A DNA stretch of 60,491 bases from positions 1 through 60,491 of IMG/VR virus record IMGVR_UViG_3300028835_000602. One strand, 5' to 3'. The DNA is from a virus. Its lineage: Duplodnaviria > Caudoviricetes. The position numbers and the translations under genes were made by a program. Position 1 is the first letter of the stretch; every line of letters begins with the position of its first letter. Under the pieces are notes generated by a model. The model was not told the origin of the DNA. It saw only the letters and a list, made by a program, of their open reading frames with translations, and did not search any database. Below, one piece after another: positions 1 to 49,218 of this stretch.

Positions 1-28
1 TAGATAACAGCAACCGAAGGAGGAAGGC

Positions 29-1918
29 ATGAAGAATATGGACACAGCGGAGAACGTGAGGTATCTGGGCCCGCATCAGATCCAGACAACGGACAACGTA
101 CGGACTACCAGCTCGAAGGAGGCGCAGGCAGACCTGGCAGAATCGATCAAGAGGCTCGGGATATTACAACCGCTCCTCTGCACGACCCGAGACGGGAAGA
201 AGGGTGGCTTCGTCCTGGTGGCCGGCTACCGGAGATTCCAGGCTGCCAAGGCCCTGGGACTCGGCAGCATCCCGGTGATCATCCGGCCCGGCATGAGCGA
301 GGACGACATCGTCAACTGCCAGCTCGAAGAGAATATCAAGCGGGAGGACCTGAACCCGATCGACGAGGGGCGGTTCCTTTCGGAGTACCGGAAGAAGAAG
401 CCGGACAAGACGTTCGAGGAGCTGGCGCAACGGATCGGGAAGACAGCGAAGTACGTGGCGCAGCGGATCGCCCTGGTCGACCGGTTGATTCCGGCGTTCC
501 AGGAGATGGTACAGAAGGGGGAACTTTCCCTCTCGAAGGCCCACGTCCTGGCAGCGATATCGGAGGAGGATCAGGACCAGTTCAGCCCGAAGGGGAAAGG
601 CCTGGACAGGTGGGGCAGGGAGTATAATAAAGACAGGCTGGAAGGCAACAGTACCGAGGACCTGGCCGAAAGGATCAGCGAAAAACTGAGGGCGGTTCAA
701 GGCCGGCTGTGGAAGAAAGTGGAGCCCCTGAAAAAAGGCGAGGGGCAGCTGCCGGACTGCGACAAGTGCATGAAACGATCCGACCGGCAGGGCTATCTCC
801 TGGGCGTAGTAGACAGCAAGAAGGCCATGTGCCTGGACTCCTCATGCTGGCGGGAACACGTGGCCCTCTTCTACGAGATGGAGCTGGAGAGACGCCGGAA
901 GAAGGGGCGCCGGATCCTGACGGCGGCCGAGGTTAAGATAGTAAACTGCTCCGATCATGAAGGGACGATAAGAGACTTCGGCCTGGTGGGATCGACGACC
1001 TACGTTCCCTACCGCCTTGAGGACTCGGGGAAATACAAGGCACGATGCTTATCATGCCCCGATATGGCGTTCTACATCAAGACCGGGCGCAACCTGGATG
1101 GCGGCGGGATAGCCAAGACCTGTTGCAACATTACCTGCCTGAATGAGAAGGCGGGAAGGAAGGCCACAAAGCTAAGTGCTACCGAGAAGAAATCCAATGC
1201 CGACAGGGCCACAGCCTATTCGGACCAGGTTGTAGAGGGATCGGCGCGAGTCTTCGCGGCAGCGGCCTGGGCCCTCGCCCGGGCGCGATCGGTAAAGACG
1301 GAGGGACCGGACTTGAAGGCTCTCCCGAGGGTCCTGCATGCGATCAACAGAAGGATCAGCGGGGATTCGATCGCCGGCTGGGGTGCGGGCTGGATACTCG
1401 ACAAGTGCGGCTGTGCCGTGAAGCAGGAGTACGACTATGTGGCCGCGGCTTTCACTAACTACTTCGAGATCGCACCGATCGACACCCTGGAGAAGCTTCC
1501 CCCGCGGCAGCTGGACGAGGCGATCCGGGCGCTCTCCTACCTTGAGGTGATGGAATACAGGCTTCCACACGGGAACCTGGTCAGTTCGAGCTGGACGGGA
1601 ACGATGACCAACTGCCACGTGATCACCGGGGACATGAGCGCCTTGAACGCCCAGGCCCGGAAGCTGTTCTCACCGTCGGACGAGGCCTTCCTGCAGTCGA
1701 TGGTGAAGTGCGGGATCCAGGCAGTGGGACGGTTCCACAAGATCAAGGGCATGGGAGGCAAACGGAAGGCCGTCGTCGAGAAGTTGATGGCGGCCGAGCT
1801 GACGAGCAAGGAGAAGATGTACCCGGCCCTGGATAAGATGTTCGACAAGGGGTTGTGGAAGAAGCTCTCGGCCAAGCCGAAACCGAAAGCCAAAAAGAAG
1901 ACAACCAAGAAGAAATAG
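29..1918 (+). CDS. ParB/RepB/Spo0J-family protein with Cys-rich C-terminal extension
   Basis: LAESIKRLGILQPL, LVAGYRRFQAA and QLEENIKREDLNPIDE ParB motifs, then an HTH and CxxC clusters; RBS AAGGAGG. Confidence 0.9.
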   Translation: MKNMDTAENVRYLGPHQIQTTDNVRTTSSKEAQADLAESIKRLGILQPLLCTTRDGKKGGFVLVAGYRRFQAAKALGLGSIPVIIRPGMSEDDIVNCQLEENIKREDLNPIDEGRFLSEYRKKKPDKTFEELAQRIGKTAKYVAQRIALVDRLIPAFQEMVQKGELSLSKAHVLAAISEEDQDQFSPKGKGLDRWGREYNKDRLEGNSTEDLAERISEKLRAVQGRLWKKVEPLKKGEGQLPDCDKCMKRSDRQGYLLGVVDSKKAMCLDSSCWREHVALFYEMELERRRKKGRRILTAAEVKIVNCSDHEGTIRDFGLVGSTTYVPYRLEDSGKYKARCLSCPDMAFYIKTGRNLDGGGIAKTCCNITCLNEKAGRKATKLSATEKKSNADRATAYSDQVVEGSARVFAAAAWALARARSVKTEGPDLKALPRVLHAINRRISGDSIAGWGAGWILDKCGCAVKQEYDYVAAAFTNYFEIAPIDTLEKLPPRQLDEAIRALSYLEVMEYRLPHGNLVSSSWTGTMTNCHVITGDMSALNAQARKLFSPSDEAFLQSMVKCGIQAVGRFHKIKGMGGKRKAVVEKLMAAELTSKEKMYPALDKMFDKGLWKKLSAKPKPKAKKKTTKKK

Positions 1919-2085: not shown

Positions 2086-2319
2086 ATGGAGATAAGAGGA
2101 ATAGTAGAGAAGTGGAATCCCCATCACTCGACCGTTCAGGTCACGCTTATAGCGAAGGCGGAAGAAGACTTACTGAACTTCATAAAACACGAAGCGCGCC
2201 CATTCAGGACCGTCCAGGATGCAGTAACTTACGGCGAGGACCTGGCCCATGAACTGGACATTGGCCTTGTGAAGTGGGAGTTCAGGGGTGTTCCAGATCC
2301 CCGGGAGGTATCGAAGTAA
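2086..2319 (+). CDS. hypothetical protein
   Basis: Strong RBS AAGGAGG before the ATG; 77 aa. Confidence 0.75.
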   Translation: MEIRGIVEKWNPHHSTVQVTLIAKAEEDLLNFIKHEARPFRTVQDAVTYGEDLAHELDIGLVKWEFRGVPDPREVSK

Positions 2320-2815
2320 TGAAAGGCGAAGATACGGGTCACAATGGAAGCTCGGCCGGATCGACAAGTTCTTTGTGCCGGGGATCCCCGTGCAGAAGGG
2401 GCGCCCGCGGTTCTTCCGGATGGGGAAAGGAGTGAGAGCGTACACCCCGGAGAAGACGACGAACTACCAGAACCTGGTCAAGCTGAGCCATCAGCAGGCG
2501 GTCGGAAAGATGGAGCCCTGGGATGGTCCTGTTGCAACCACCATCCGGGCGGTCTTCCCGATAACGAAGTCAAAGCCGAAGTGGTTCAAGGATGCCTGCG
2601 AGAAGGCACAAGCGGAGGGGTGGGGGATCCCGGTAACCAAGACCCCGGACCTGGACAACCTGGTGAAGGCGGTTCTTGACGCGCTCGACGGGATCGCCTA
2701 CACGAACGACCGCCAGGTCTTCTCCCTGAAGGCTGCGAAGGTTTACGGGACCACCCCAGGGGCGCAGGTCATCCTCTACTGCTACGAGGGGCCAACCAAG
2801 GGGACTGCAAAATAA
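2288..2815 (+). CDS. rusA: RusA-family Holliday junction resolvase (start uncertain)
   Basis: FFVPGIPVQKGRPRF, TPDLDNLVKAVLDALDGIAYTNDRQV. Confidence 0.85.
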   Translation: MFQIPGRYRSNERRRYGSQWKLGRIDKFFVPGIPVQKGRPRFFRMGKGVRAYTPEKTTNYQNLVKLSHQQAVGKMEPWDGPVATTIRAVFPITKSKPKWFKDACEKAQAEGWGIPVTKTPDLDNLVKAVLDALDGIAYTNDRQVFSLKAAKVYGTTPGAQVILYCYEGPTKGTAK

Positions 2816-4764: not shown

Positions 4765-5843
4765 AACATATAGATTTATTTTCAGGCATTGGGGGCTTTG
4801 CCCTGGCCGCCCGAGTAAACGGATTCGAGACAAAGGTATTCTGTGAAAACGATGAAAGATGTCAGTCCTTCCTCAAAAAAGCGTGGCCCGGAGCCCCCAT
4901 CATCGGAGACATCCGAGACTTCGATGGGACCAGGTGGACCGGTTCAACTCTCCTTACTGCCGGGGTCCCCTGCCAGCCGGCCAGTCGAGCCGGGAAGCAA
5001 AGAGGCGAAGATGATGACCGTTGGCTCTGGGGAGAAGTTGAGCGTATTATATCCGAGTCAAAGCCCGATTGGGTCCTTCTTGAGAACCCTCCTGGGATCT
5101 TCGACGTGGGGGTCAACGGAGTACCTCTTGAAGTGGAAGGCCGAGGCGTGGTACGAGAGGCAGATAAGGATTATTACAATCGGGTATTCTCACGACAGGA
5201 AGACCTGTACCTCGGAGTACTTAAGAAGCACCTCGAAGAGATGGGATATGAAGTCGCCCCACCACTTGAGATTCAGGCTTGTGCACTTAACGCCCCCCAC
5301 CTTCGGGCAAGATATTGGATTGTGGGGCACTCCAGTAGTAAAATACAACCGAAGAGGAGAAAAGTTCCGAAAAGGCCGAGAACCACTACCGTCGGAAGAG
5401 CTGGCGACGTGGCCCACGCCAAGAGCCGGAGTTCCGGGAAGTCGAAAGCCCGGAACGGGGGGGAAGATTCTAAGAGAGGAGTTGAAGAAGTCAACCTGGC
5501 CGACGCCGACTTCAGGAGATCGGAGGGGACCAGGAAGCGCTCAGCAGGGAATTCATGCGATAGCACGGGCGACTTGGTCCACCCCGAAAAGCTCTCCCAG
5601 CGGTCCGGACTATGCAAGAAGAAATCGGGAGGGAAGCGGCGGAGACGATCTGGCAACGCAAGCGGCAGATTTTGGGACAACTCCAGCTGGCTTCCGTGCT
5701 CCGATGAAAAGCTTCGTCGTGTACCTGGTAACTCTTTCGGCTTGGCTGATGGGATACACCATAGCCTACTTGAAGCACTGGGAAACTCGATCGTCTGGCA
5801 AGTCGCAGCGGAAGTAATAGGAGCGATTAAGGAGGCAAACTGA
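4761..5843 (+). CDS. DNA cytosine-5 methyltransferase, main chain; apparent ATA start
   Basis: Manual translation from 4761: (I/M)KHIDLFSGIGGF (motif I), GDIRD, AGVPCQPAS (IV), LLENPPG (VI), HLRARYWIVG (VIII), LGNSIV (X); the ORF track shows only 5106-5843. Confidence 0.9.
   Translation: MKHIDLFSGIGGFALAARVNGFETKVFCENDERCQSFLKKAWPGAPIIGDIRDFDGTRWTGSTLLTAGVPCQPASRAGKQRGEDDDRWLWGEVERIISESKPDWVLLENPPGIFDVGVNGVPLEVEGRGVVREADKDYYNRVFSRQEDLYLGVLKKHLEEMGYEVAPPLEIQACALNAPHLRARYWIVGHSSSKIQPKRRKVPKRPRTTTVGRAGDVAHAKSRSSGKSKARNGGEDSKRGVEEVNLADADFRRSEGTRKRSAGNSCDSTGDLVHPEKLSQRSGLCKKKSGGKRRRRSGNASGRFWDNSSWLPCSDEKLRRVPGNSFGLADGIHHSLLEALGNSIVWQVAAEVIGAIKEAN
4852..5817 (+). CDS. nested alternative-frame polypeptide, probable second subunit of the C5 methyltransferase (start uncertain)
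   Basis: Open for over 320 codons; repeats LWGTP/TWPTP/TWPTP/TWSTP; motif IX-like SAWLMGY. Confidence 0.65.
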   Translation: MKDVSPSSKKRGPEPPSSETSETSMGPGGPVQLSLLPGSPASRPVEPGSKEAKMMTVGSGEKLSVLYPSQSPIGSFLRTLLGSSTWGSTEYLLKWKAEAWYERQIRIITIGYSHDRKTCTSEYLRSTSKRWDMKSPHHLRFRLVHLTPPTFGQDIGLWGTPVVKYNRRGEKFRKGREPLPSEELATWPTPRAGVPGSRKPGTGGKILREELKKSTWPTPTSGDRRGPGSAQQGIHAIARATWSTPKSSPSGPDYARRNREGSGGDDLATQAADFGTTPAGFRAPMKSFVVYLVTLSAWLMGYTIAYLKHWETRSSGKSQRK

Positions 5844-5844: not shown

Positions 5845-5907
5845 ATGCTGACACAGGCCTGGGCGCTCGCGGCCTTCGGGGTCGCGGCCTGGGTGTTTGG
5901 ATCATAA
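5845..5907 (+). CDS. 20-aa hydrophobic micropeptide
   Basis: RBS AAGGAGG at 5829-5835; MLTQAWALAAFGVAAWVFGS. Confidence 0.55.
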   Translation: MLTQAWALAAFGVAAWVFGS

Positions 5908-5939
5908 CGGCAAAGCCCCAAAGGGGCAAAGGAGTGAGT

Positions 5940-6167
5940 ATGAGAATAGTGGAATTTGAGGTCGACCTCTATGACGAGGTCGTCCTTCCGACCGGGGACA
6001 AGGGGGTCGTGACGATGCTCGGCATCGACGAATCCTGCCCCCAGGCGGTGGTGGCAGTGGTCGGCCAGGCTGACAGAAACTGGTGGCCCATAAGCAGGCT
6101 GAATCCGGCTCCGACGGAACCGGAAGCAGCCCCGACCGAGGAGGAAAAACCTCCGGCTGCCGAGTAA
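5940..6167 (+). CDS. small hypothetical protein (possibly SH3/KOW-like)
   Basis: RBS AAGGAG; beta-rich pattern. Confidence 0.65.
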   Translation: MRIVEFEVDLYDEVVLPTGDKGVVTMLGIDESCPQAVVAVVGQADRNWWPISRLNPAPTEPEAAPTEEEKPPAAE

Positions 6168-6227
6168 AAAGTCGGGATAGGCCCGAGACAGCGTTCAACT
6201 TCGTACGGTCTATCTAATCAATGAGGA

Positions 6228-6263
6228 GAGGGCCTCCCTTAATCGGGGGGCCTTCTTTTTTTT
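6228..6263 (+). terminator. intrinsic terminator
   Basis: GAGGGCCTCCC/GGGGGCCTTC stem followed by a T run. Confidence 0.8.
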
Positions 6264-6274
6264 CTCTTTTTTTC

Positions 6275-6303
6275 TTGACAGGATTCAAGGCCCGGGATAC
6301 TAT
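6275..6303 (+). promoter_or_regulatory. sigma70-type promoter
   Basis: TTGACA-17 nt-TACTAT. Confidence 0.85.
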
Positions 6304-6308
6304 GGCGC

Positions 6309-6404
6309 TTCAAGGTCACGGTCCCACCTGGTCAGTGGGACATCTTCATTTTTTATCTCCTTTGGTTGGCCCGCCGCCCCCTCCCCGGGGGCGGCGGGTT
6401 TTTT
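6309..6404 (+). ncRNA. candidate trans-acting anti-RBS small RNA (~95 nt)
   Basis: Lies between a promoter and a terminator; 5' hairpin GTCCCAC/GTGGGAC; single-stranded CTCCTTTGGTTGG; no credible ORF of its own. Confidence 0.7.
6370..6404 (+). terminator. intrinsic terminator
   Basis: CCCGCCGCCCCC/GGGGGCGGCGGG stem followed by TTTTTT. Confidence 0.85.
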
Positions 6405-6406
6405 CC

Positions 6407-6436
6407 TTGACAGACTCTCTGCCAGCGGGCTATGTT
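6407..6436 (+). promoter_or_regulatory. sigma70-type promoter
   Basis: TTGACA-18 nt-TATGTT upstream of the gene at 6473. Confidence 0.65.
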
Positions 6437-6472
6437 TACACCGCTCCGCCCCGAGCGCGCAAGGGGAGACCC

Positions 6473-7045
6473 ATGCGCAAAACGAAAATCAGGAACCTGG
6501 TCGACGAGATAACTGAGCTTTTTCTGAGTTATGAGACGAGGTTCAAATCAGAGATCGTCTTATACCTGGTTTACCTCCAGGGCGCCCATATCCAAGGAAG
6601 GTATCGGAACAAGAGAGAGCCGGCCGCAGATGGACCGGCCGACGTAGATGAACCGACCGACCGGTGGCGCCATTGCCCGGAGGTGATGTCCCTTTTCCTT
6701 TACTGGCTGGGATACAACGAGGAGGAGATCGGGAACTTCTCATGCCGGAAGGTAGACCCAGGAATAAGTCAGCAGGCGGCGTCGAAGAGGCTGGGACACG
6801 GCGGCGATATTTTCAAAAAGAACTTCGGCCGGGATCTTCGAGAGACCCCGGGCCTGAAGATAAGTGATAACTTGGTGAGAGCCCGGGCATTTTTGCTCGG
6901 GCTTATTTTTGAGTACGTGGGGGAGTTGCAGGCAGACGGCCGGGAGGTGGCGGACGTGGAGAAGCTGGCGGACGAGTTCGCAGGCTTCCTGGAGGAGAGG
7001 GTGGGGAGGGGAAGGACCCCAAAAAGCCTGGTGGCGGGGAAGTGA
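6473..7045 (+). CDS. putative HTH transcriptional regulator (sigma region 4-like)
   Basis: LGYNEEEIG...GISQQAASKRL; RBS GGGGAG; precedes the packaging module. Confidence 0.55.
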   Translation: MRKTKIRNLVDEITELFLSYETRFKSEIVLYLVYLQGAHIQGRYRNKREPAADGPADVDEPTDRWRHCPEVMSLFLYWLGYNEEEIGNFSCRKVDPGISQQAASKRLGHGGDIFKKNFGRDLRETPGLKISDNLVRARAFLLGLIFEYVGELQADGREVADVEKLADEFAGFLEERVGRGRTPKSLVAGK

Positions 7046-7084: not shown

Positions 7085-7654
7085 ATGGGAAAGAAGACGG
7101 AAAAAAGGAAAGCGGCTGAGAACGAGATCCGGACAAACCTCGACGTCCGGATGATCCCCGTCTCGAAGATCAACCCTGCGAAGTACAACCCGCGCATCCG
7201 GCTGAGGCCGGGGGATCCGGAGTACCAGGCGATCCAGGCCAGTCTGAGGGAGTTCGGATATGTCGACCCACTGATCTGGAACGAGCGGAACGGGAACCTG
7301 GTGGGAGGACACCAGAGGTATGGGATCCTGGTCGACGACGGGGCGAAGGAGATAGCCTGCTCCGTGGTGGACCTCAACGCGGCCGCGGAGCGGAAGTTGA
7401 ACATTGCCCTGAACAAGGACCTCGGAAGGTGGGACCACCGGAAGCTTGCCGAGGTCGTCGCATGGCTCCAGAAGGATGATCCGGAGGTGGACCTGCAGCC
7501 GTGCGGGTTCACCCCGCTCGAGGCGGATGAACTGGTAGCCGAGTTCCTGTCGCCGCCGGCGCCTTCCGGAGAGCCTGCCGGCAGGGAGTACGGGAAGGGG
7601 ATCGGGGAAGTCTCCTGTCCGAAGTGCAAGCATGAGTTTATCCCGGAGATCTGA
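7085..7654 (+). CDS. ParB N-terminal-like domain protein with C-terminal zinc ribbon
   Basis: INPAKYNPR, SLREFGYVDPLIWN, LVGGHQR, CPKCKHEF. Confidence 0.85.
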   Translation: MGKKTEKRKAAENEIRTNLDVRMIPVSKINPAKYNPRIRLRPGDPEYQAIQASLREFGYVDPLIWNERNGNLVGGHQRYGILVDDGAKEIACSVVDLNAAAERKLNIALNKDLGRWDHRKLAEVVAWLQKDDPEVDLQPCGFTPLEADELVAEFLSPPAPSGEPAGREYGKGIGEVSCPKCKHEFIPEI

Positions 7655-7665: not shown

Positions 7666-8724
7666 ATGCCGAGAAGGAAGCCGACGTTGATATCGACGTT
7701 CGCGGGCTGCGGGGGCAGCTCGCTGGGATATAGGTGGGCCGGGTACCGGGAACTGCTGGCCGTAGAGTGGGATCGGAACGCGGTCAAGACCTTCCGGCTG
7801 AACTTCCCGGACGTCCCAGTATGGGAGGAAGACATCGCCAGGCTCTCGGTCCGGGAGGCAATGCGGATAGCGGGCCTGAAGCAGAAGGGAGAGCTGGACC
7901 TGCTCGACGGGTCGCCGCCGTGCCAAGGGTTCTCCTCCTGCGGGATCAGAACCGCGATTGCAGACAGGACGAAGGACACCAGGAACCTCCTGTTCAGGCA
8001 CTTTACCAGGCTGCTCCGCGGACTCGGACCCCGGGCCTTCATCATGGAGAACGTCCCGGGGATGGTCCGCGGCAGGATGAAGGTCGTCTTCGCTAACATC
8101 ATGGGAGAGCTCGAGGCGGCCGGGTACAGGGTTGCCTGCAGGAGGCTGAATGCTAAGTGGTTCAATGTACCGCAGGACCGGACACGCCTGATTTTTATCG
8201 GAATCCGGAAGGACCTGAAAAGAGATCCGGTGTTCCCCGAGAATGGCGCAAGGATAATTACTGCAGCCGAAGCCCTGGATGGGATAGATCCAGGGGACGA
8301 AGTACCGTATCTCAATCTGGCATCGGGGAGAAAAATGGATGACTACGTACTCCGATACCTTAACAGACCGGGGGCCGTTCTGGACAGGATCTACAGGGAC
8401 GGGAAGGTCGTCTTCAAAGGAAAGTATTTCGCGTGGAGGAGACTGCACCCGAACAAGCCAGCGCCGACGATCGTCAGGGAAGACAGCAGCGGGATGAAAC
8501 TAATCCACTGGACGGAGCACAGGGGTCTGGGGATCCCGGAGGTCAAGGCCCTCTGCTCCTTCCCCCAGGACTTCCAGATGGCCGGGACATACAGGGAGAG
8601 GTACATGAGGCTCGGGAACTCCGTTATGCCGAGGTTCATGGAGGCAATTGCCCGGGAGGTCCGGAGGAGGATCCTCGAGAGGGCGCCGGTCTGGAAAGGG
8701 AAGAAGGCGGCAAAAAAGAAGTGA
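7666..8724 (+). CDS. DNA cytosine-5 methyltransferase
   Basis: FAGCGG, GSPPCQGFS, MENVPG, QDRTRLIFIG, LCSFP, LGNSV. Confidence 0.95.
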   Translation: MPRRKPTLISTFAGCGGSSLGYRWAGYRELLAVEWDRNAVKTFRLNFPDVPVWEEDIARLSVREAMRIAGLKQKGELDLLDGSPPCQGFSSCGIRTAIADRTKDTRNLLFRHFTRLLRGLGPRAFIMENVPGMVRGRMKVVFANIMGELEAAGYRVACRRLNAKWFNVPQDRTRLIFIGIRKDLKRDPVFPENGARIITAAEALDGIDPGDEVPYLNLASGRKMDDYVLRYLNRPGAVLDRIYRDGKVVFKGKYFAWRRLHPNKPAPTIVREDSSGMKLIHWTEHRGLGIPEVKALCSFPQDFQMAGTYRERYMRLGNSVMPRFMEAIAREVRRRILERAPVWKGKKAAKKK

Positions 8725-9587: not shown

Positions 9588-9621
9588 CAGGCAAAAAGGA
9601 CCAACCCTGAGGAGGAGACTG

Positions 9622-9807
9622 ATGGAAAAGGGACAGTTGAGTACACCATTGAAGAAAGGGAAACCCCCGGAGAGGAAGAAGATAAAGAGGATTCCAATTA
9701 AGGAGTTCCGCAAGGTGGGATTCCTATACGTCGCAAGGTTGAGGAAGAGCAAGGAAGCGGCCAGGCGAGGACTGCTCGGGTCAGTGATTCAACCTATACC
9801 GAAGTAG
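9622..9807 (+). CDS. small basic hypothetical protein
   Basis: RBS GAGGAG. Confidence 0.5.
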   Translation: MEKGQLSTPLKKGKPPERKKIKRIPIKEFRKVGFLYVARLRKSKEAARRGLLGSVIQPIPK

Positions 9808-9839: not shown

Positions 9840-10547
9840 ATGAAACCGGAGCAGCGAGAACAAACGATCGAGAAGGTCCTGGGACACCTCACAGAAGGCG
9901 TGAGCATCAAGGATGCGTGCCTCAAAGCCGGGACGAAGTATTCGACCTTCTGGAAGTGGCGGCAGGAGGACTCCGAGGAGCGGACAGCCGCCCCGGAGGA
10001 CACGCCGGCCCAGGGGAAGAGCATCGACGAGAGGATCATGGACGCCAAGGAGGAGGCGGGCCTTCGGAGGCTGATGGACGAGGCCAGTGAGGTGGAGAAG
10101 GCACTGATCCTGCGGGCCAAGGGGTTCAAGCAAGTCGAGGAGGAGTTCATCCCGGAGACAGACAAGGACGGGAACATTGTCTACGAGGACGGGGATGGGA
10201 ACATTGTCTCCGCCAAGAGCGGGGTTCCCAGGGGCGCGAAGCCGCGGCTGATTCTGAAGAAGCGGAAGGAGAAGACGATCGCTCCGAGCGTGACGGCGAT
10301 CGCCCTGGCCCTGGTCAACATGGCGAAGTCGAAGCTGACGACGATCGAGTGGAAAAACGTGTGGGACGTCGCGCTGGACGACGAGACGAAAGAGGACCTG
10401 ATGGCGCTGTTCCGGAGGCTGGCCGTAGAAGACCGGGAAAAGGAGGCCGATGAGCCACCTGCGAAGTGTGATAAAAAGAAGGGAGAGCTTGGCACAGAGG
10501 CGAGCTCGAAAGTCATACGACGAAAGCGTGTGGAGGAAATTCTCTGA
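9840..10547 (+). CDS. terS: terminase small subunit
   Basis: N-terminal HTH, VEKALILRAKG, APSVTAI; directly upstream of terL. Confidence 0.75.
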   Translation: MKPEQREQTIEKVLGHLTEGVSIKDACLKAGTKYSTFWKWRQEDSEERTAAPEDTPAQGKSIDERIMDAKEEAGLRRLMDEASEVEKALILRAKGFKQVEEEFIPETDKDGNIVYEDGDGNIVSAKSGVPRGAKPRLILKKRKEKTIAPSVTAIALALVNMAKSKLTTIEWKNVWDVALDDETKEDLMALFRRLAVEDREKEADEPPAKCDKKKGELGTEASSKVIRRKRVEEIL

Positions 10548-11952
10548 GAGGATGAACGAGTGGAGGAGGGTCCCGGAGATCTTCTTTAGCGAGATCCTGG
10601 GGGCTCAGGAGGTAGACCCGTTCCAGATCGAAACGATGCACGCCGTCCGGGACTATCCCCAGGTCGATGTGAAGTGCGGAAACGAGGTGGGGAAGACCTG
10701 GGTCTTCGCCGGGATCGCGGTCTGGTTCCTGACGGTTTACGGACCGAACGCATCAGTGATCGTGACATCCTCGACGGATCGGCAACTCTGGCATCAATTC
10801 TGGCCGGAGGTCCGGTCCTTCTACTACAACGCCCCGATCCGGCTGCCCGGCCGGGTGATGGAGTCAAAGCGGTGGGAGGTGAGCAAGGAGGAAAAGTGGT
10901 TCATGCTCGGCTTCGCCACCAGCAACGAGGCCAACTTCGAGGGGTGGCATAACGTCAATCAGCTCCTGATCATGGATGAGGCGAAGGGGATCCCGGACCC
11001 GGTCTGGAAGTCTGGCCGACGGCTCCTACGGGGAAAGGGGGGCGTAAAGAAGTGGCTGGTTGGCGGGACCCCCCCTCGTGCCCCGATCGGCGAGTTCTGC
11101 GAGATCTCCCTGGACCCGAAGAAAGCGGCCCGCTGGCACCATATCCATTGCACGGGCTGGAATAGCCCACGAGTCAGCAATGTGGAGTGCCAGAAGGACC
11201 TGGACCTACATAGGGCGGACAGTCCATTCTACCTCTCGATGGTAATGGGACAGATCCCGACGAAGGTGGCCGGGATGCTGGTCTCGATGGAAGATGTGCA
11301 GAGGGCCTGCGACCGGGAAATAAGACCGGGGAAAAGGGACGAGGTCCGCTTGAGTTGCGACGTGGCCCGGGAGGGGACGGATGAGACGGCGATCGGACTG
11401 CGCCAGGGGCTGCATATCGAGAAGTTCATCCACGAGGGGAAGGATCGGACAACCTGGTCAACGGCCAGGCTGAAGGAATTGGCCCGGAGGTTCGAGAGCC
11501 CGAAGGAGATCCCGATGTTCATTGACGACACCGGGGTCGGGGGGGGCGTGACGGACCAGCTGATCGCCGATGACTACTTCGCAGTCCCGTTTAAGTTCGG
11601 AAAGCGAGCCCACGATCCAACCAGGTACTACGACGCCGGCACGGAGATGTTCGCCGATTTCGGGAAGATCCTGGAAACGGAGGAGGTCGACCTGCCAAAT
11701 GACCCGGTGTTGAAGGCACAGCTCTGGTCGAGGACAAAGGTCTTCTACAAGCAAAAAGGGAAGCACGGGGCGGTGACAAAGCTCTTGTCAAAAGAGGAAC
11801 TGAAGAAGCACCCGGAATTCAGAGGAAAGAAATTTGACCAGGCGGACGCAGTAGGGATGTTGTTCGCCCAGTTCCCTCCGTACGAAGAGGATGAGACAGA
11901 TGTTGACCTGATGGGAACCGAGGATTTGATCCGGGAAGTTAAGGCTAAGTAA
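10450..11952 (+). CDS. terL: terminase large subunit
   Basis: Walker A GNEVGKT, Walker B LLIMDEA, RNase H-like CDVAREGTD, IDDTGVGGGVTD, DQADA. Confidence 0.95.
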   Translation: MSHLRSVIKRRESLAQRRARKSYDESVWRKFSERMNEWRRVPEIFFSEILGAQEVDPFQIETMHAVRDYPQVDVKCGNEVGKTWVFAGIAVWFLTVYGPNASVIVTSSTDRQLWHQFWPEVRSFYYNAPIRLPGRVMESKRWEVSKEEKWFMLGFATSNEANFEGWHNVNQLLIMDEAKGIPDPVWKSGRRLLRGKGGVKKWLVGGTPPRAPIGEFCEISLDPKKAARWHHIHCTGWNSPRVSNVECQKDLDLHRADSPFYLSMVMGQIPTKVAGMLVSMEDVQRACDREIRPGKRDEVRLSCDVAREGTDETAIGLRQGLHIEKFIHEGKDRTTWSTARLKELARRFESPKEIPMFIDDTGVGGGVTDQLIADDYFAVPFKFGKRAHDPTRYYDAGTEMFADFGKILETEEVDLPNDPVLKAQLWSRTKVFYKQKGKHGAVTKLLSKEELKKHPEFRGKKFDQADAVGMLFAQFPPYEEDETDVDLMGTEDLIREVKAK

Positions 11953-12368: not shown

Positions 12369-14060
12369 ATGGCAAGGAAAAGACGGCTCAGGTTCTCGAT
12401 ATTCCACCGTCGAGAAAACCAAGAGAACGAGGACGACGGGAAGACCGGTAAAGACACGGCGCGGAAGATCGAAGCCGGCCAGAAGTCGCGGCCATCTTTA
12501 AGCCTCTACCTCCGACCCGGCAGAAAGATAATGGGGATAGTTCCCCGCCGGAATATCATCTACGACGTAGACGTCGAACAGCTGAAGAGGCTATCGACGT
12601 CGACCCTCCTAAAGAACCTGGTCAACATTTCCCCCGAGGCATCAATGGCGCTGTGGATCTTCATGCGCCTTTGTTCCGACGATACCTTGATCCACGTGAC
12701 GGACCTTAAGGGAAACGACTTTCCCCGCGGCCAGGCCTACATCGACGAGGTGGTGGCGAGGATCAGCCATGACCGCGGAGGCTTCCAGACGCTTGAGGGC
12801 CAGTTCTTCCGGACCACCTACACCCAGGCCGCAACAGCCCCCGAGGTTGTGTTAATGGAAAACCTCCGGGACACGAAGGACATTGTCGCAGTGGACCCCG
12901 GCAGCATCACCTTCTTCGAGCAGACGGAGGAGGACGGGACGATCAGGTACATCCCGAAGCAGATGGGGGGAGGCCAGGGGGGATGGGTCAGCCTGGACAA
13001 ACAGGGCTTCTACTACGTACCGATGGACCCGGACATCGGGGACCCCTACGGGGTATCGCCCCAGGTTTCGATGCTCCAGGTGGTCTTCTTCGACCTGCAG
13101 ATCCTGGCGGACCTCCAAAGAGTGACCCATAACCAGGGGAACCCGCGGCTCCACTTCAAAGTCGTCGAGAAGATAATCGCAAAGAACGCGCCGGTGAAGA
13201 TCCAGAACAACCCGAAGGCGCTGAGGAAATATATCGAGGACTACCTGGACAAGCTGCAGATCCGGATCGACAAGATGGAACCGGACGACAGCTACCTGAC
13301 GACGGACGCGACGGAGATCGAGGAGAAGGGCGGCAGCGGGAAGTCGGCCATCTCAGCAAAGATCCTGATGGACCTGCTGAAGTCGAAGATCGCCAACGGG
13401 TTAAAAACGCTGTCAATCTTCTTGAACATGCACACCGGGAAGACCGAGAGCTGGGGTTCGATCGAGTGGATGATCCAGATCGCCTCGGTGGACTCGATCC
13501 GGAGGGTGGTGAAGTCGGGGTTAGACTCGGCCCTGACTTTCGCACTTCAGGTAAAGGGGCTCCAGGGGAAGGTATCAAGGATCTACAAACCGATCCCGCT
13601 CTACAGCCGGAAACAGGCCGAGGAAGCAGACCTGGCTAAGACCCGGAGGATCCTCTTGTCAGTGAAGTACGGAATCATCGGCCCGGACGAGGCGGCAAAG
13701 GAGCTCTTCGGCATCGAGAAGGCGACAGGGGAACCAATGCTGGAGTTGGACGATACTCTGCTGATGAGGGCCAGCGCCATAGTTGGCCCGGAGGAGACCG
13801 CAGCCCGACTGGAGAGCGTGGAGTCGATGATAGTCGGGAGAGGATGGAAACCAGAGGATAGGACCAGATCAGTCAGCTCAGCAAAAAACACGATGGCGAC
13901 AGGCCCCAGGGGCGACAGGCTGCAGACGGTGAAGCGGAGCAAGGTCGACGACCTGATCAGATCCTACGAGCGGGACCTGGAGAGAACGATGCGCCGGACC
14001 ACGCGGCAGGTCGAGGACGTCACCCTGGAGAACCTGGAACTCGAGGGGGATGAAGAATGA
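12369..14060 (+). CDS. portal protein
   Basis: Position after terL, 563 aa, DPYGVSP motif. Confidence 0.85.
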   Translation: MARKRRLRFSIFHRRENQENEDDGKTGKDTARKIEAGQKSRPSLSLYLRPGRKIMGIVPRRNIIYDVDVEQLKRLSTSTLLKNLVNISPEASMALWIFMRLCSDDTLIHVTDLKGNDFPRGQAYIDEVVARISHDRGGFQTLEGQFFRTTYTQAATAPEVVLMENLRDTKDIVAVDPGSITFFEQTEEDGTIRYIPKQMGGGQGGWVSLDKQGFYYVPMDPDIGDPYGVSPQVSMLQVVFFDLQILADLQRVTHNQGNPRLHFKVVEKIIAKNAPVKIQNNPKALRKYIEDYLDKLQIRIDKMEPDDSYLTTDATEIEEKGGSGKSAISAKILMDLLKSKIANGLKTLSIFLNMHTGKTESWGSIEWMIQIASVDSIRRVVKSGLDSALTFALQVKGLQGKVSRIYKPIPLYSRKQAEEADLAKTRRILLSVKYGIIGPDEAAKELFGIEKATGEPMLELDDTLLMRASAIVGPEETAARLESVESMIVGRGWKPEDRTRSVSSAKNTMATGPRGDRLQTVKRSKVDDLIRSYERDLERTMRRTTRQVEDVTLENLELEGDEE

Positions 14061-14786: not shown

Positions 14787-15400
14787 AGATCGAGAACGCA
14801 AACCAGAAATCGACCGCAGTGGCAGCGATCCTGGCGTCCGGCCAGCGGGAAGTGGAGATCCTTGAGGAGCAATACTTCGCAGAGGCCTACGAACTGGGGA
14901 TGGTCTCAGCCGACGAGATAGCCGAGTTCGGCCGGGAGATGTCAGCAGCCACAGCGGCCAGCCGGGTAGGGGAAATGACGGAGGAGGAGAGAGGATATAC
15001 GGCCGGCTGGTTCGGAGCGATCCAGAAAGACGTCGACCGGGCTCTTGAGGGGGACTACGCAGACAAAGCCGCGGCAGGGAAAGCACTCAGGACCGCGGCA
15101 ACGAAGAAGCTGTTCCGGGTAGCGGCCTACGCCGGCGCCGCCCACAAGGTCTTGTTCAAGGGATTCAAGGAAGAAATGATCCTCCAGCGGGTGAACCTGG
15201 CGGCGAAGGCAGTTGTGGTCGAGGCGCTATTCACGGCGTTTCCGGAGGCGGATGTAATCGAGACATCATGCTTCGGCTGCCCCGGAGCGGTGGACGGGAA
15301 CCCCTATACCCCATCAACAGTACCATCCCCGGGAGAGTTTGAGTGCCTTACCAAGTGTAGACACTGGATCATGTATAGGAAAAAGCTTATTCAAAGCTAA
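14783..15400 (+). CDS. head morphogenesis/minor head protein (SPP1 gp7/Mu gpF-like)
   Basis: C-terminal CFGC...PSPG..ECLTKCRH; lies between portal and protease. Confidence 0.6.
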   Translation: MKIENANQKSTAVAAILASGQREVEILEEQYFAEAYELGMVSADEIAEFGREMSAATAASRVGEMTEEERGYTAGWFGAIQKDVDRALEGDYADKAAAGKALRTAATKKLFRVAAYAGAAHKVLFKGFKEEMILQRVNLAAKAVVVEALFTAFPEADVIETSCFGCPGAVDGNPYTPSTVPSPGEFECLTKCRHWIMYRKKLIQS

Positions 15401-15404
15401 AAAG

Positions 15405-15497
15405 AAGCTAACGGGGAGCCCCCCGGTACCCCCTACCCGGGGGTACAAGGAAAAGGAAAAGGAACAGGAGAAGGTAAAGGTAAAGGTAAAGGAGAAA
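15405..15497 (+). repeat. origin-like element, copy A
   Basis: AAGCTAACGGGGAGCCCC-12 nt-ACCCGGGGGTACAAGGA followed by purine-rich hexamers; inverted copy at 45862-45967. Confidence 0.9.
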
Positions 15498-15504
15498 GAA
15501 AGAG

Positions 15505-15834
15505 ATGATACCCGAGGGATATGCGAAGACCGCCTGTGAGCTTGCCGATGATTTTAAGTTGATCGAGTTACCAAAGGGAGCTAAGTATAAGATAAAAATT
15601 CGGGAAGCTGGCATACCGGAGATCTTCATTAAACTATCGAACGGAAGGATAGAGAGGAGATGGCTGGAGATCGTTGAATTTGCGGAAGGTGAAGTCGAGA
15701 ATCCATCCGGAAAGATGGCACCCCTCGCAAAGGTGGTGAAGCCGGGAGATCTTCGCGAGGTGAACCAGTCGGGCCGTTTCGGTTGTGGACCACGCCCATA
15801 TATAGGCAATGAATGCATTCGTCGTACAAGCTGA
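15505..15834 (+). CDS. hypothetical protein
   Basis: ORF track; purine-rich leader. Confidence 0.55.
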   Translation: MIPEGYAKTACELADDFKLIELPKGAKYKIKIREAGIPEIFIKLSNGRIERRWLEIVEFAEGEVENPSGKMAPLAKVVKPGDLREVNQSGRFGCGPRPYIGNECIRRTS

Positions 15835-18607: not shown

Positions 18608-19792
18608 ATGATACCAGAAGTTAGATTAGTCTACGCGGGAACCGACCGCGAATTCCAGTTGCCCGACAACGTGGAGATCGTGGGCGGAGCCTCAAGGGCG
18701 GCGGACATTGACCTGTCAGCCGGAATAGATGTTTACAAGCAGTGCTCCGAGGAAGGGATCAACCTCACGCAGTACCTGGAGCGCCGGGACCCGTCGCGGT
18801 ACGACGGTGCCGGGAAGCTCGTTGGCCTCGATGCATATCAACGGCAGCTGAGGCTGGCGGGGATCGTACCGGTCAGTTTCCCGGAAGAGGGCCGATTCGC
18901 CTCGAAGGGCGAGCGGTTCTTCCAGGCCGGCTATCCGGCGAGCAAGGTCCTGTTCCCTGAGTTCATAGATCGGGTGGTCAGGATGGTGCTGCTGCGGCCG
19001 GCGACGATCGACGCGATGTTAGCGTTGACCCGGATGATCACCTCGGCAACCTACCAGGCGATGGAAATCACCTGGGACGAGAAGGATGTCCGGAAGAAGC
19101 GGACGCCGCAGATGACGGAGTTTCCGATCGTCAAGTTGGCGTGGTCCGATACGCCGGGGAAGGTCCAGAAGTACGGCCGAGAGGTGCAGACCTCGTACGA
19201 GTTTATCCGCGAGGCTTCCCTCGACATTCTCCAGACAGCGATCACCCTGATCATGACCCAGACGAGGGTGTCCGAGTCGGACGACGCCGTGGCGACGATG
19301 TGGAACCAGGTGGCGGACAGTTACATCTACAAAGCCAACGGTTCCCAGGGGCTGGATACGGCTTCGTCGGCGGGCCAGGGTAACTTGACTTACAACGCGT
19401 GGTTAGCTTTCGCGTTGGAGTTTTTCCCGTACCAGGTCGACACGATCGTGGCGGGGAAGAAGGCCCTGATCAAGTGGGTAACGATGAGCAAGCCAGGCGC
19501 CGATATCATGGAAGTCCTGGCGGCTCTTCAAGAAGGACCCGCGACCGTACGATTCCGGCTCGAGCAGAACATCTGGGGCCCGGTCACGCTGATCTACAAC
19601 TCCGCAGTGCCCGACGATAACCTGCTTTGCTTCCAGAAGGAGTATGCGCTGGAGCGGATACTGCAGGTCGGCGGCGACATCACGGAGATGGAGAAGATGA
19701 TCAGGATGCAGTTCTCCTCGATCATCCTTTCCGAGATGGTCGGCTTCGGGATACTCTTCCCGCAGGTCATCCGGATCCTGAAACTGAACTAA
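18608..19792 (+). CDS. major capsid protein
   Basis: 394 aa; LFPEFIDR, KYGREVQTSYE HK97-fold pattern; gene order. Confidence 0.85.
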   Translation: MIPEVRLVYAGTDREFQLPDNVEIVGGASRAADIDLSAGIDVYKQCSEEGINLTQYLERRDPSRYDGAGKLVGLDAYQRQLRLAGIVPVSFPEEGRFASKGERFFQAGYPASKVLFPEFIDRVVRMVLLRPATIDAMLALTRMITSATYQAMEITWDEKDVRKKRTPQMTEFPIVKLAWSDTPGKVQKYGREVQTSYEFIREASLDILQTAITLIMTQTRVSESDDAVATMWNQVADSYIYKANGSQGLDTASSAGQGNLTYNAWLAFALEFFPYQVDTIVAGKKALIKWVTMSKPGADIMEVLAALQEGPATVRFRLEQNIWGPVTLIYNSAVPDDNLLCFQKEYALERILQVGGDITEMEKMIRMQFSSIILSEMVGFGILFPQVIRILKLN

Positions 19793-20660: not shown

Positions 20661-23600
20661 ATGGAAAAGCGGATCGGAAGAATAATTGCTTTTATGGTTT
20701 TGGGATGCTTGCTCGTGTTGAGTAATGCGTTCTCCCAGACCCCAACTCCAACCCCAGCCGGTTACGTAACGTTCTGGTCCGAGACATTCAATAATTATTC
20801 GATCGGAACGATAGAAGGGTCCGGCTCACCTCCCCGCTGGACCGTTGATACCTCCGGGGCGACGATTGTCCCTCCCGATGATTATTTTGATGTTAGGTAT
20901 CGTACTGACTGGGAGAATCACACATATATGGCGGCTCGTGATCTCGATGGCGAGGCGATATGGATTAGCGAGACGATTGATACATCAGCTGCTGGTTTAA
21001 TCACAATTTCGGCCTGGAGCATAGCTTCTTACGGCCTGGAGCCTGCTGACGAGTACCGTTTAACTTATGATATTGACGGAGCAGAGACAACTTGGTTTTG
21101 GGAGACAAATGATTTCCCCGATGGTGCAAATACTTGGTGTACGGAAGGGACGGACGTTTCATCGGGAACGGATCTTATACTACGTTGGTATATTACAAAC
21201 AACGCCGATGATGAGCAATACGGTCTTGATAACGTTGCGGTTGGAAAAATCGTAACTCCGACCCCATCAGTTACTCCAACTGTAACGCCTACACCTACTC
21301 CAACATCATCTACTACCCCGTCAATTACTCCAACGCCAACTACAACGCCAAGCATCACCCCTACACCCTCTGTTACCCCTACGGCGCAATGTCTGCGGGA
21401 GTTCGGGGAGAACTGGCAGAGCAAGATGGGGATTCAGGGCGATTACTATTGGAGGTGGAGGCAACGGTTGTCTGACGATATGATTATTTCTGAATGGATA
21501 GCCGAGACCTTATTTTCAACGGGCCAGTGGGCGGAGAACACCTTCGCCTCAATTGATAATTCTAACTGGTTATACCAAAGAGCTTCGTTTGCCGTTAAAC
21601 TTGCGGAAGATAGCGCGCCCACGACAATCACTTGGACTGACGGGTCAAGTATTTATATCGCCGAATCAGATGAATCGTCAGATACGGAATGGAGTTGGGA
21701 GAATATAACTACTGTATTTGCGGGCGATGGATATACCTACCATGATGCTAATATTGGTTTTAGCAAATCGGCCTCCCCGCCAAATATTATAGTCATTGGT
21801 TCGTACGATGATGGAGTAAACCATATCGTCGTCTCAAGGCAAAATACCGCTACGGGGGATATAACAGCCTGGGATTCAACCCAAACTATGTCCAGCGGGA
21901 CGAATGACCAGGAAATATATGGGGTCATTATAAAAGTCGTTGGCGACTCTGGCGGAACGAAAAAAGAAATACTTGCTACGTGGAAAGAGCAATCGGTTAT
22001 AAAATCTCGCTATAGAAATAATAGCGAAACGTGGGGAATTGAGACAACAGTCGCCCTCGACGCCTCTGATGGGGAAGCTCAATTTGACGTGGAAAATACT
22101 CTTAATGCGGGGGTCGAGGGAGCCCATATCATTTATGTTGATGACGCTGGGAATATAATATCCGCCGAAAGGACCAGTGGAGTAGGCTTGGCGTGGACAA
22201 ACTATACGATTGTCGAGCCGAGTGATTCGCTCGGTTGCGTTGGGATAGTCCAGTATCAGGGAGGAGATCTTGGCTATGTGTGGGACAAGAACGATACTTC
22301 ATTTCAGTTCCGCACCCACGACCCGAACCACTCACCTCCTTGGATCCCATCATTGGACCAGCCAGCAAATAACTGGCCGCAGATAGATTTTGCTCGGCAG
22401 TCAACAGTTAATATCTCTCAGTCTCAATATCCTTCTCAAATTTCTAATTCAGGAAACCTTATAACTAACTGGATTGGAAATACGGAGAACGGTGGTTGTA
22501 CGATTGGCTGGGGGGAAATATACGATGTACCTCCGACCCCGAGTCCGAGTCCGACCGTAACCCCTACGCCTACGGTAACTCCATCCATAACTCCGACGCC
22601 CTCTCCGATAACACCTACTCCTTCGACAACACCATCGACAACGCCTACCCCTACGCCTACCGCAACCCCGACTCCATCGGTTACTCCTACCCCTACCGTC
22701 ACACCGTCTCCGTCTCCGACGCCCTCAATCCCCGATACCTTATCTAACCCGAGTTTTGAAGTTGGTAATGGCGGCGGGGGACAAAGCATTTCTGATTGGA
22801 CCGAACTCGGAACGCCGTCTCAGCTAACTTGGTCTTTAGCAAATCCTTATGAGGGAGTCCGTTCTTGTCGTGCAAATGCTTTAACGCTAACCCCTGGGGA
22901 TAGGGCGGTTATAAGTTATCCCATGAATGCCTTAGCGGGAGAAAATTATAGATTGAGTGGCTGGACGAGCATTACTGGAGTGGGTGATCCTGACACGGTA
23001 TATTATAATTATGCGTCATTGTTTTATAACGATGTCGATGATTTTCTTGGAGGGCAAACAGGAGCGTATCGAGGGGTCACGATAGATGTCTGGAGTAACC
23101 AATCTTTCACTGCTACTTCCCCTGGGTCTACTACCAGGTTACGGGTTTATTTTGACGCCATGGAGACTGAGAATAATGACAACGATACCTTCACGGATTA
23201 TTTTCAGGTTTACTTAATAACGCCGACGCCAACGGTTACGCCGACACCTTCTGTTACCCCCACCTCAACGCCCTCAACTACTCCTACCCCAACAGTGACG
23301 CCTTCCCCAAGTCCAACTTTAACACCCCAAAAGACCTCGACTCCTACGCCAACAGTTACGCCGACGGTGACACCATCGGCGACACCATCAACTACGCCAA
23401 CGGTAATGCCCACACCCTCCCCTACAATGACTCCCTGTGGTGGCCGGGCCTGGGTCCAGATGACTGATATTGAGAATATGACTTGGAACTCCGCTACGAT
23501 CGCGGAGGGTTTCGATGTTATCCTTCGTCCGTTTGGTTTAGGCATTGGCTACGAAAAAGGGCAAGTCTCTGGTATGACGGGGAGCTTTATAGATGGGACC

Positions 23601-24119
23601 GATAACCCCCCCTCGGCAAATATGTATTATTCGATATTTACCGAGGAAGCCAAAACTTGGTCTATATTTGATTTCACGGTTGATTACGACGGCACAAGTC
23701 GGCGCATATACGGACCCACTTATGAGACTTCTGGGGAAGTTGAGACATATTACTACTTTGACGATACAGGAGCCTCGTATGTAGATATCGGTCTTTGTAA
23801 TCTGGCGAGGGGGGTGCCTACGCCTACGCCCTCAGTAACGCCAACTCCTACTGCGACTCCGACGCCAACGCCAACGGCAACGCCTTCCCCTACCCCCACG
23901 GTTACACCAACAGTCACCCCCACGGTTACGCCTACGCCAACGCCAACGCCATCGGTGACATCTACTCCTACGCCATCCGTGACGCCGACGCCAACGGCGA
24001 CCCCAACACCATCTCCTACGCCTTCGGCAACCCCGACTCCTTCACCGACGATTGCACCAACTCCAGCATCTAAGCCAGGAAACATCATTCCAATTCTCAG
24101 GCGACGGAGGGGAGGATAG
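20661..24119 (+). CDS. large exported multidomain protein with Thr-Pro linkers and CBM-like domains
   Basis: Signal peptide, four long TP/SP tracts, LSNPSFE module, C-terminal [11 protein letters not shown]. Confidence 0.85.
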
Positions 24120-38569: not shown

Positions 38570-38886
38570 GGGGGTGAAACGGGATCGACGGTTAGATAAA
38601 TAAGACTTGGCGCATGTCGAGGTTGGCCGGGGGGCCTCGTAAAAACCCGGCCGAAGAAGTAATTGGCGAAGCAATGCCATTAGCAGCTTAGACAAGTCTA
38701 AGCCGGGGACCGATCGACGCCGATAGATTATATCCCCGCAGGGATCGGTTGACTTTTGGGGGAACCGTTTTCAAAGCAAAACGGGAGCCTTTGAAGAAGT
38801 AAGGCCGTGCCGCCTTAAGAGCACTAAGCATGTAGTGCCAACCTTATTTGCTATTCCGGACGGGGGTTCGACTCCCCCCACCTCCA
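38570..38886 (+). ncRNA. ssrA: tmRNA
   Basis: 5' GGGGGTGAAACGGGATCGAC; 3' GACGGGGGTTCGACTCCCCCCACCTCCA with the G3-U70 pair; tag frame 38665-38691 GEAMPLAA-stop. Confidence 0.93.
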
Positions 38887-38893
38887 TAAAAAA

Positions 38894-45811: not shown

Positions 45812-45861
45812 CCCCGTGGGGAGACTTCGGCGAATCAGGGGGGGTCGGGAAACCGGCCCTC

Positions 45862-45967
45862 CCTTTTCCTTTACCCCTTCCTTTACCTTCTCCTGTTCCT
45901 GTTCCTGTTCCTGTTCCTTCTCCTTGTACCCCCGGGTGGAGGCACCCCAGGGGCTCCCCGTTAGCTT
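45862..45967 (-). repeat. origin-like element, copy B (inverted relative to copy A)
   Basis: Reverse complement shares identical 18-nt and 17-nt blocks, the 12-nt spacing and the hexamer tract with 15405-15497. Confidence 0.9.
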
Positions 45968-46191
45968 TTACTGGCTGTTGATCTGGAGTTTCCCGGAAAG
46001 ATTTAAAGCCCTAAAAAACCGGATTGGAGCCACCCCCCATTTTTCGGCCTTGATTTTTCAAAAAAAAATTTGCCCTGATTTCTGGAAAGACGTGGAAAGC
46101 CAGGAAGCCCCTTGCACATGATTATCAGCGACTTACGACAACCCGGCTCCCACTGCCAGAAAAAGGAGCCCATGGAGGGCAAAGATTTCTT

Positions 46192-48225: not shown

Positions 48226-48298
48226 GGGGCGGTACGCTTAGTGGTAGAGCGAGGGGACAGGATCCTCACACGCGCTGGTTCGAATCCAGTCCGCCCCA
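48226..48298 (+). tRNA. tRNA-like RNA with non-canonical anticodon loop (identity unassignable)
   Basis: Acceptor GGGGCGG/CCGCCCC-A, D arm with AGTGGTA, T arm GCTGG-TTCGAAT-CCAGT; anticodon arm GGGGA-CAGGA-TCCTC lacks U33. Confidence 0.75.
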
Positions 48299-48818: not shown

Positions 48819-48915
48819 CTGCTCGTTAGTAACAACCCCGAGGACGGAGCGGGTTCCACGTCCTCTCGCGCTTTATAAAAAGAGAAACTGAAGGACCAAC
48901 CAAAGGAGGAGAACG

Positions 48916-49218
48916 ATGCCAGAACCAATGAAGACGAGCGATAAGCTAAAGGCCGTCCTCTGCGATCCGGAGGGCAAGATCGTGATCAAGGGGAGTAACG
49001 GCGATAAGACTCTCCTGAAAGAGGCGATCACAGAGGTTGAGGCTCAGGAAAGATTCAATAGCGAGGGAGTGACACCCGAAAGGCTGAGGGAGATCATCGA
49101 GCAGATCGACCGCGACACCCTGTCGCCGGAGGAAAGGGAGGGCTTCTGCTTCCTTCTCCTCCGAAGAATACTTCAAAAAGGAAATCCAAGACAGCAACCA
49201 AAGGAGGTAGGACCATGA
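48916..49218 (+). CDS. hypothetical protein
   Basis: RBS CCAACCAAAGGAGG. Confidence 0.75.
   Translation: MPEPMKTSDKLKAVLCDPEGKIVIKGSNGDKTLLKEAITEVEAQERFNSEGVTPERLREIIEQIDRDTLSPEEREGFCFLLLRRILQKGNPRQQPKEVGP

Follow-up and report, generated by a model that had tools for sequence, protein, structure and literature searches.

A candidate phage small RNA complementary to translation starts of its own genome

Introduction

Why would a phage carry a translation start written backwards between two transcription terminators? The question is raised by a stretch of some 210 nt in an uncultured phage genome, for which a preliminary description had proposed a self-contained small RNA (sRNA). This sRNA was thought to silence in trans a set of early phage genes marked by a CAACC tag ahead of the SD, or else to act on a host mRNA. 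Our analysis confirms the underlying observation and partly supports the interpretation.

Results

The element lies between two gene blocks

The window analyzed here is the whole IMG/VR record IMGVR_UViG_3300028835_000602 (60,491 bases), which is classed as 'linear' and has an estimated CheckV completeness of 55%. If the two ends are joined, the 3'-open frame 60024-60491 reaches an in-frame TAG at window positions 1-3, which suggests that the genome is circularly closed or permuted, and maybe complete despite the CheckV estimate. A protein-cluster listing mentions a contig of 60,603 bases that carries the same proteins. The plus strand carries every long ORF of the window; GC content varies between about 51 and 63%, and GC skew and AT skew are positive throughout.

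The gene map (Table 1) was obtained from Pfam and PHROGs scans of 49 window proteins, many of which matched no family; neither an integrase nor a clear repressor was found in these scans. Because RusA and a methyltransferase-like gene lie upstream of the element, and a ParB-like nuclease, a C5 methylase, TerS, TerL and portal genes downstream, the element is placed at the junction of the replication/recombination and the packaging/structural genes, in agreement with the early/late boundary proposed earlier.

Some features elsewhere in the window were noted in passing. The tmRNA is full-length and lies inside a phage gene block. Rfam also reports a tRNA match at 48226-48298, where ARAGORN makes no call. 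The 1152-aa ORF 20661-24119 contains long coding repeat arrays of the Thr/Pro type (21237-24061), with lower GC and negative GC skew.

Table 1. Coordinates of the element, its predicted targets and the surrounding genes in the window.
Feature	Position	Strand	Remarks
Predicted target 1, start of the ParB_N/HTH_ParB gene	11-31	+	CAACCGAAGGAG, one G-U; 11/12 shared
ParB_N/HTH_ParB gene	29-1918	+	Pfam/PHROGs
RusA	2288-2815	+	Pfam/PHROGs
Methyltransferase-like gene	4843-5817	+	Pfam/PHROGs
75-aa ORF, no family	5940-6167	+	last ORF of the upstream (early) block
Element (T1-P1-sRNA unit-T2-P2)	6223-6436	+	
T1, intrinsic-terminator-like hairpin	6223-6260	+	then T-rich run to 6274; closes the early block (last ORF stop 6167)
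P1, sigma-70-type match	6275-6280, 6298-6303	+	TTGACA, 17 nt, TACTAT; 10/12; T-run before it
Predicted small RNA, ~95 nt	6310-6404	+	5' end placed from the -10, 3' end from the U-run
5' hairpin	6321-6341	+	7 pairs, 7-nt loop
Unpaired CU/U-rich segment, candidate seed	6342-6367 (listed to 6369)	+	26 nt
Complement of a translation start	6347-6369	+	exact; SD, 7-nt spacer, ATG
Mini-frame MKMSH*	6349->6332	-	5 codons
T2 hairpin	6368-6400	+	14 pairs, 12 G-C; then six T at 6399-6404
P2	6407 to 6436	+	TTGACA at 6407, 18 nt, TATGTT ending at 6436; 10/12
190-aa gene, no family	6473-7045	+	ORF
ParB-like nuclease	7085-7654	+	Pfam/PHROGs
C5 methylase	7666-8724	+	Pfam/PHROGs
TerS-like	9840-10547	+	Pfam/PHROGs
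TerL	10450-11952	+	Pfam/PHROGs
Portal	12369-14060	+	Pfam/PHROGs
Major head	18608-19792	+	Pfam/PHROGs
tmRNA	38570-38889		Rfam 126 bits; ARAGORN tag peptide GEAMPLAA*
Strong terminator	45837-45864	+	ends the late block
CU-rich stretch (tandem TCCTGT and related units), then GC hairpin, T-run	45865-45970	+	directly 3' of terminator 45837-45864
Predicted target 2, start of gene 48916-49218	48896-48918	+	13-nt exact complement
Gene of 100 aa, no family	48916-49218	+	
Predicted target 3, start of the Gp3-like gene	49195-49217	+	12-nt exact complement
Gp3-like (PF18897)	49215-50573	+	Pfam/PHROGs
Exonuclease	50601-51728	+	Pfam/PHROGs
SbcC-like	52909-54876	+	Pfam/PHROGs
DnaB-like helicase	55325-56689	+	Pfam/PHROGs

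A short unit bounded by a predicted promoter and terminator

The terminator, the TTGACA-17-TACTAT promoter, the 5' hairpin and the second terminator of the preliminary description are all present at the positions given there. A further promoter match absent from that list, P2, follows directly 3' of T2, 37 nt ahead of the ATG at 6473. In three scans of window positions 1-60000, P1 and P2 were the sole plus-strand promoter matches with 10 of 12 consensus positions. T1 and T2 headed the plus-strand terminator lists over the same range, T2 being the strongest. Since the top matches of both kinds fall within it, the stretch of about 210 nt at 6223-6436 is, as far as predictions go, the place in the record where transcriptional signals are densest. 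The unit is oriented, as a U-run follows T2 on the plus strand only. Its own predicted promoter and intrinsic terminator support the view that a short non-coding unit is delimited here. The two predicted promoters would be used by the polymerase of the host, whichever organism that may be.

The predicted RNA, folded as the 96 nt 6310-6405, reaches -45.8 kcal/mol (z = -4.5), and none of 200 shuffled sequences was as stable. The segment complementary to a translation start is single-stranded in both the MFE and the centroid fold. On the whole minus strand, the pattern AAGGAG-N4-10-ATG occurs only once, namely inside the element, versus 27 occurrences on the plus strand.

Coding readings of the element were considered and set aside. 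A plus-strand frame (6221-7045) is open through it, but its first 84 codons are of low complexity and cross two terminators, and the extension upstream of the 6473 start (6221-6472) has no RBS. In the related locus L003, the alignment with the homologue of the 6473 gene begins at residue 1 of the 6473 start. On the minus strand, translation from 6349 to 6332 yields MKMSH and nothing more, as previously noted. A minus-strand gene or leader peptide is unlikely, because all long ORFs are on the plus strand and no minus-strand promoter match was found at 6370-6700. The five-codon minus frame, the low-complexity plus frame and the L003 alignment together indicate that the element is non-coding.

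Within the downstream ORF 6473-7045, a terminator-like hairpin is present at 6879-6904 (11 pairs, followed by a T-rich run). The homology of the encoded protein with its L003 counterpart stops at residue 122, just ahead of this hairpin.

Complementarity to translation starts of the phage

With at most one mismatch, the word CAACCAAAGGAG is found at four sites of the window, three on the plus strand (11-22, 48897-48908 and 49195-49206) and one on the minus strand (6357-6368). Shuffles had a mean of 0.26 sites, and none of 100 reached four. The plus-strand sites are those named in the preliminary description. The 13/13 match at the RBS of gene 48916 was found as an exact shared word, and the site at the parB RBS (11-22, one G-U) was recovered. 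At 49195, the 12/12 match is exact, but by reading of the sequence the duplex extends to about 18 pairs with three G-U allowed, not to the 16 claimed. Sharing of this length is rare among start regions. Only 4 of the 2775 pairs formed by 75 start-region fragments have at least 12 nt in common, and three of these four fall within the group of 48916, 49215 and the element complement.

The three named starts are also the best partners by raw duplex energy. They occupy the top three ranks among 74 starts (-29.7, -28.4 and -28.2), followed by -23.3 for the next-best start; the median is -16.2. When accessibility was crudely corrected for by adding the opening energies of both RNAs, they ranked 1, 3 and 4 of 99, with the untagged start 3051 (lacking CAACC) tied for rank 1. 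The evidence for an accessible seed beyond chance depends on the control. When the flanks were shuffled around a fixed CUCCUU core, the top-three mean of the real sequence (-28.8 kcal/mol) was equalled in only 4 of 300 cases. In contrast, pseudo-seeds made as inverted copies of other starts had an equal or better top-three mean in 31 of 74 cases, and any inverted start would thus 'find targets'. Duplex energy alone is not special. The match to the three starts is real at the sequence level (p in the range of 0.001-0.01); it demonstrates common sequence, not why the sequence is common.

While the named starts stood as best partners, the CAACC-tagged regulon that had been postulated around them was not established. 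CAACC occurs between -30 and -7 of 4 of the 74 starts, versus 2.1 expected, and two other pentamers likewise precede AAGGAG three times. Early and late starts did not differ in predicted pairing (p = 0.23).

Two other sites resemble the targets. The end of the RusA gene (2789-2813) reads GGGCCAACCAAGGGGA and could pair with 6358-6372 through 11 exact nt, or about 15 if G-U is allowed. This site is probably not an RBS, because the distance to the next ATG (2820) is at least 17 nt. The small gene 9622-9807 carries GGACCAACC ahead of its SD (9600-9621), with 10 nt in common with the 48916 leader, and only three starts have a better raw duplex energy with the element.

The start word in other genomes

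The preliminary description also allowed for a host mRNA matching all 23 nt of the segment. Among 185,579 species genomes, the exact 23-mer has a single match, which opens an 83-aa frame in a Eubacteriales MAG. The shorter 19-mer is found at 84 sites in 83 metagenome contigs. At 75 of these sites a start codon lies 3-13 nt 3' of GGAG, and 61 open a frame of at least 40 codons, with 44 different continuations; one contig shares 27 nt, and the word there heads a 299-aa frame. None of the 84 sites has a terminator context like that of the element. The complement of the unpaired segment thus has the make-up of a fully canonical, strong translation start, a property as much in keeping with an anti-start seed as with an inverted relic.

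Because the motif is a common gene start elsewhere, also in unrelated contigs, the single 23-mer match is not evidence for a host target. The MAG was rejected as host or target evidence on other grounds as well, as its GC content (36-43%) differs from that of the phage (about 57%) and the best match of the phage tmRNA sequence to it has E = 1.1. Given the start-like composition of the word, the rate of matches in such very large collections could be near chance; this is our estimate rather than a computed value.

Related loci

Searches for a homologue of the RNA were negative in phage records, in IMG/VR, in 24 related loci and among the metagenome matches. In particular, blastn of 5900-6900 against phage records with a setting for distant similarity gave no match, the exact 23-mer was not found in viral contigs, and motif searches in the related loci L002-L025 were negative. 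Searches with 6200-6480 by nhmmer and short blastn against 116 loci (L001 left out) recovered only the 19-27-nt start word, in loci that had been retrieved for that word, and all nhmmer E-values were at least 0.19.

Relatives of the phage are themselves distant. The 6473-7045 protein found only itself among proteins of near length, with no confirmed IMG/VR locus, and TerL as a single query found no IMG/VR locus. The best TerL relatives are at most 57% identical. A search with a TerL alignment yielded 24 IMG/VR loci. Named phages were not suitable for host inference, as the best TerL identity was 31%.

A homologue of gene 6473 is present in only two of the 24 loci, L003 and L009. L003, with a TerL about 50% identical, has two sites with a T-run and TTGACAG, at 870 and 1780, the second 55 nt before the ATG of the orthologue; TTTT..TTGACAG is invariant in the four sites (P1, P2 and the two of L003). 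About 900 nt of non-coding sequence between the L003 sites contain at least six copies of a 24-nt repeat in both orientations. Thus, the layout of predicted promoter, non-coding unit, predicted promoter and first late gene is common to the two genomes, whereas the RNA itself is not. In L009, a long hairpin with a T-run precedes the gene 6473 homologue and is almost wholly paired. No comparable promoter-terminator unit was found upstream of the terminase in L005 and L007.

The non-coding region of L003 ahead of the gene 6473 orthologue spans about 1.35 kb in all (480-1834). Its 24-nt motif occurs in at least six direct copies and at least one inverted copy, several of them within GTGCGAA...TTCGCAC hairpins; some copies have an SD-like core, others its complement.

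A second sequence complementary to a translation start

Another stretch of the window, 45865-45970, matches the reverse complement of 15385-15520 at about 81% identity. In 15385-15520 lie the leader of gene 15505-15834, which is rich in purines, its SD and its start. Between the two stretches, an inverted repeat covers 89 nt at 83%. Since 45865-45970 complements the leader and start of gene 15505, anti-start sequences recur at operon ends, and the phage may keep antisense to its own starts at such places. The same inverted duplication shows that such inversions happen in this genome, and it may equally mean that inverted modules of a hairpin plus a start arise readily here.

Discussion

We favor, with a probability of about 0.4, the reading that the element encodes a phage sRNA that occludes selected ribosome-binding sites, namely those at CAACC-tagged starts. 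Host RNA polymerase would start at P1 (about 6310) and stop at T2 (about 6404). The product would be an abundant RNA of about 95 nt, protected by its 5' hairpin and ending in the terminator hairpin and a U-tail, with 26 nt of CU/U-rich single strand in between. The open segment would pair across the SD, and in part the start codon, of mRNAs with the leader CAACC(A/G)AAGGAG, the best partners being the parB-like gene (29), gene 48916 and the Gp3-like gene (49215). Ribosomes would thus be kept from loading, and translation of the targets would fall. From the sequence signals, the predicted fold and the complementarity with its ranking, we infer that P1 fires, that a discrete RNA accumulates, and that it pairs in vivo and represses by pairing. 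The tandem promoter layout of L003 and the second anti-start sequence speak for this reading. Against it speak the negative homologue searches, the equally good pairing of many pseudo-seeds, the lack of a significant CAACC enrichment and of an early/late bias, and the tie of the untagged start 3051. Moreover, a promoter of consensus type would be active as soon as infection begins, so that the P1 match alone gives no temporal switch.

The same signals could form a terminated leader comparable to PR'-6S RNA-tR' of phage lambda, in which transcription from a strong constitutive P1 stops at T2 unless an antiterminator acts, and the RNA is a by-product. The location would suit such a leader, since the RusA block precedes the element and the packaging and structural genes follow it directly; a strong terminator about 95 nt after P1 would suit it too. 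Lambda 6S RNA provides a precedent, being described as a terminator-ended transcript of about 194 nt, with a terminator overridden by Q and NusA and a role given there as undetermined (10.1101/2024.10.31.621285). Both transcripts are short and terminator-ended, and 6S starts at the late promoter just before the late genes. In lambda it is Q that overrides termination, whereas here P2 follows T2, with a like site kept in L003, so that read-through of T2 is not needed for the late genes. To our knowledge, no second promoter follows lambda 6S. Moreover, the 49 scanned proteins, many of them without a family, included no recognized antiterminator of the Q type, sigma factor or late activator family, and the start word in the unpaired segment, unique on the minus strand, is left unexplained by a leader. 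Blastn against phage records revealed no sequence similarity to lambda 6S or to the lambda sRNA LPR1. On balance, we consider a terminated leader rather unlikely.

An inert origin is, in our judgment, unlikely as well. A small inversion may have placed a hairpin plus translation start backwards, leaving either a leftover or a DNA site bound by a protein. The gene-start character of the segment's complement, fully canonical and with its 19-mer at 84 metagenome sites and a 27-nt word heading a 299-aa frame, agrees with an inversion. So do the second inverted duplication of a leader and hairpin (15385-15520 versus 45865-45970), the L003 repeats in both orientations, which resemble DNA-level sites, and the equally good pairing of pseudo-seeds from other starts. 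On the other hand, a neutral relic need not sit exactly in the single-stranded gap between the 5' hairpin and the terminator, nor 40 nt downstream of the best promoter match of the genome; no donor can be identified beyond 13 nt, and the motif lacks the palindromic form of many DNA operator or parS sites. A real sRNA could alternatively have its main targets outside the phage, either a host mRNA or, as an anti-SD sponge, strong SD leaders in general, with the phage starts being incidental. In this direction point the 23-nt and even 27-nt words at real gene starts of other organisms, the presence of CUCCUUU, which can base-pair to every strong SD (duplex energies of -20 to -23 kcal/mol are reached by many phage starts), and lambda LPR1/PreS. 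The latter is described as ending in a GC-rich hairpin with poly-U, pairing with its targets, acting mainly on host mRNAs, and enhancing translation of dnaN (10.1101/2024.10.31.621285). The present element, in contrast, is predicted to pair best with phage starts and would be expected to repress. The sole match in genomes is the MAG with deviating GC content and no tmRNA similarity, and by our estimate matches at this rate are near chance in very large collections, which makes outside targets very unlikely.

If it acts as an sRNA on ribosome-binding sites, the element would work most like the C4 antisense RNA of phages P1 and P7. C4 (immI) is described as base pairing in trans with the phage's own mRNA to keep icd and ant unexpressed (PMC8198154). 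The likeness lies in a phage small RNA that is predicted to base-pair in trans with the phage's own mRNAs. C4 is made from the operon that it controls and serves lysogenic immunity, whereas the unit described here has its own predicted promoter and terminator. Its predicted targets are 6-43 kb away in another block, in a genome with no integrase or clear repressor found. C4 is processed from a leader. In a scan of 6200-6480 with Rfam 15, no family, C4 included, reached its gathering score, and by this measure the element is not a C4 member. The best sub-threshold match was the enterobacterial sRNA RybB (RF00110), with 27.5 bits versus a gathering score of 40 and E = 9e-4, a value that holds for the 281-nt search only. 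The element is accordingly not scored as a RybB member; the two have a common build, with a single-stranded seed in the 5' or middle part, a GC-rich terminator hairpin and a U-tail.

A wider proposal covers both anti-start sequences. Two plus-strand CU-rich RNAs at operon boundaries (6310-6404 behind the early block and 45865-45970 behind the late block) would shut off sets of phage genes post-transcriptionally, with RNA in place of proteins. The first would act on the parB-like gene, gene 48916 and the Gp3-like gene, and the second on gene 15505; both would have been born by inversion of modules made of a hairpin plus a start. We regard this proposal as distinctly doubtful. In phage T4, RegA is a translational repressor protein and RegB an endoribonuclease that cuts in GGAG. 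The parallel is one of function only, namely post-transcriptional silencing of early messages via ribosome-binding sites, and two shut-off RNAs, if real, would be an sRNA counterpart of control of the RegA/RegB type.

The present value of the element is that of a well-formed candidate prediction in an uncultured phage, rather than a result. It would join a known kind, the phage-encoded base-pairing sRNAs. Targets are known for few of the small RNAs that phages encode, and most such RNAs act on host messages or on a neighboring gene. If the prediction is true, the element would be a simple and portable repressor module, composed of a promoter, a 5' hairpin, an anti-start seed and a terminator, and the temporal control of phage gene expression would gain a level exerted by RNA, through a free-standing sRNA that acts on the ribosome-binding sites of several distant phage genes to silence them.
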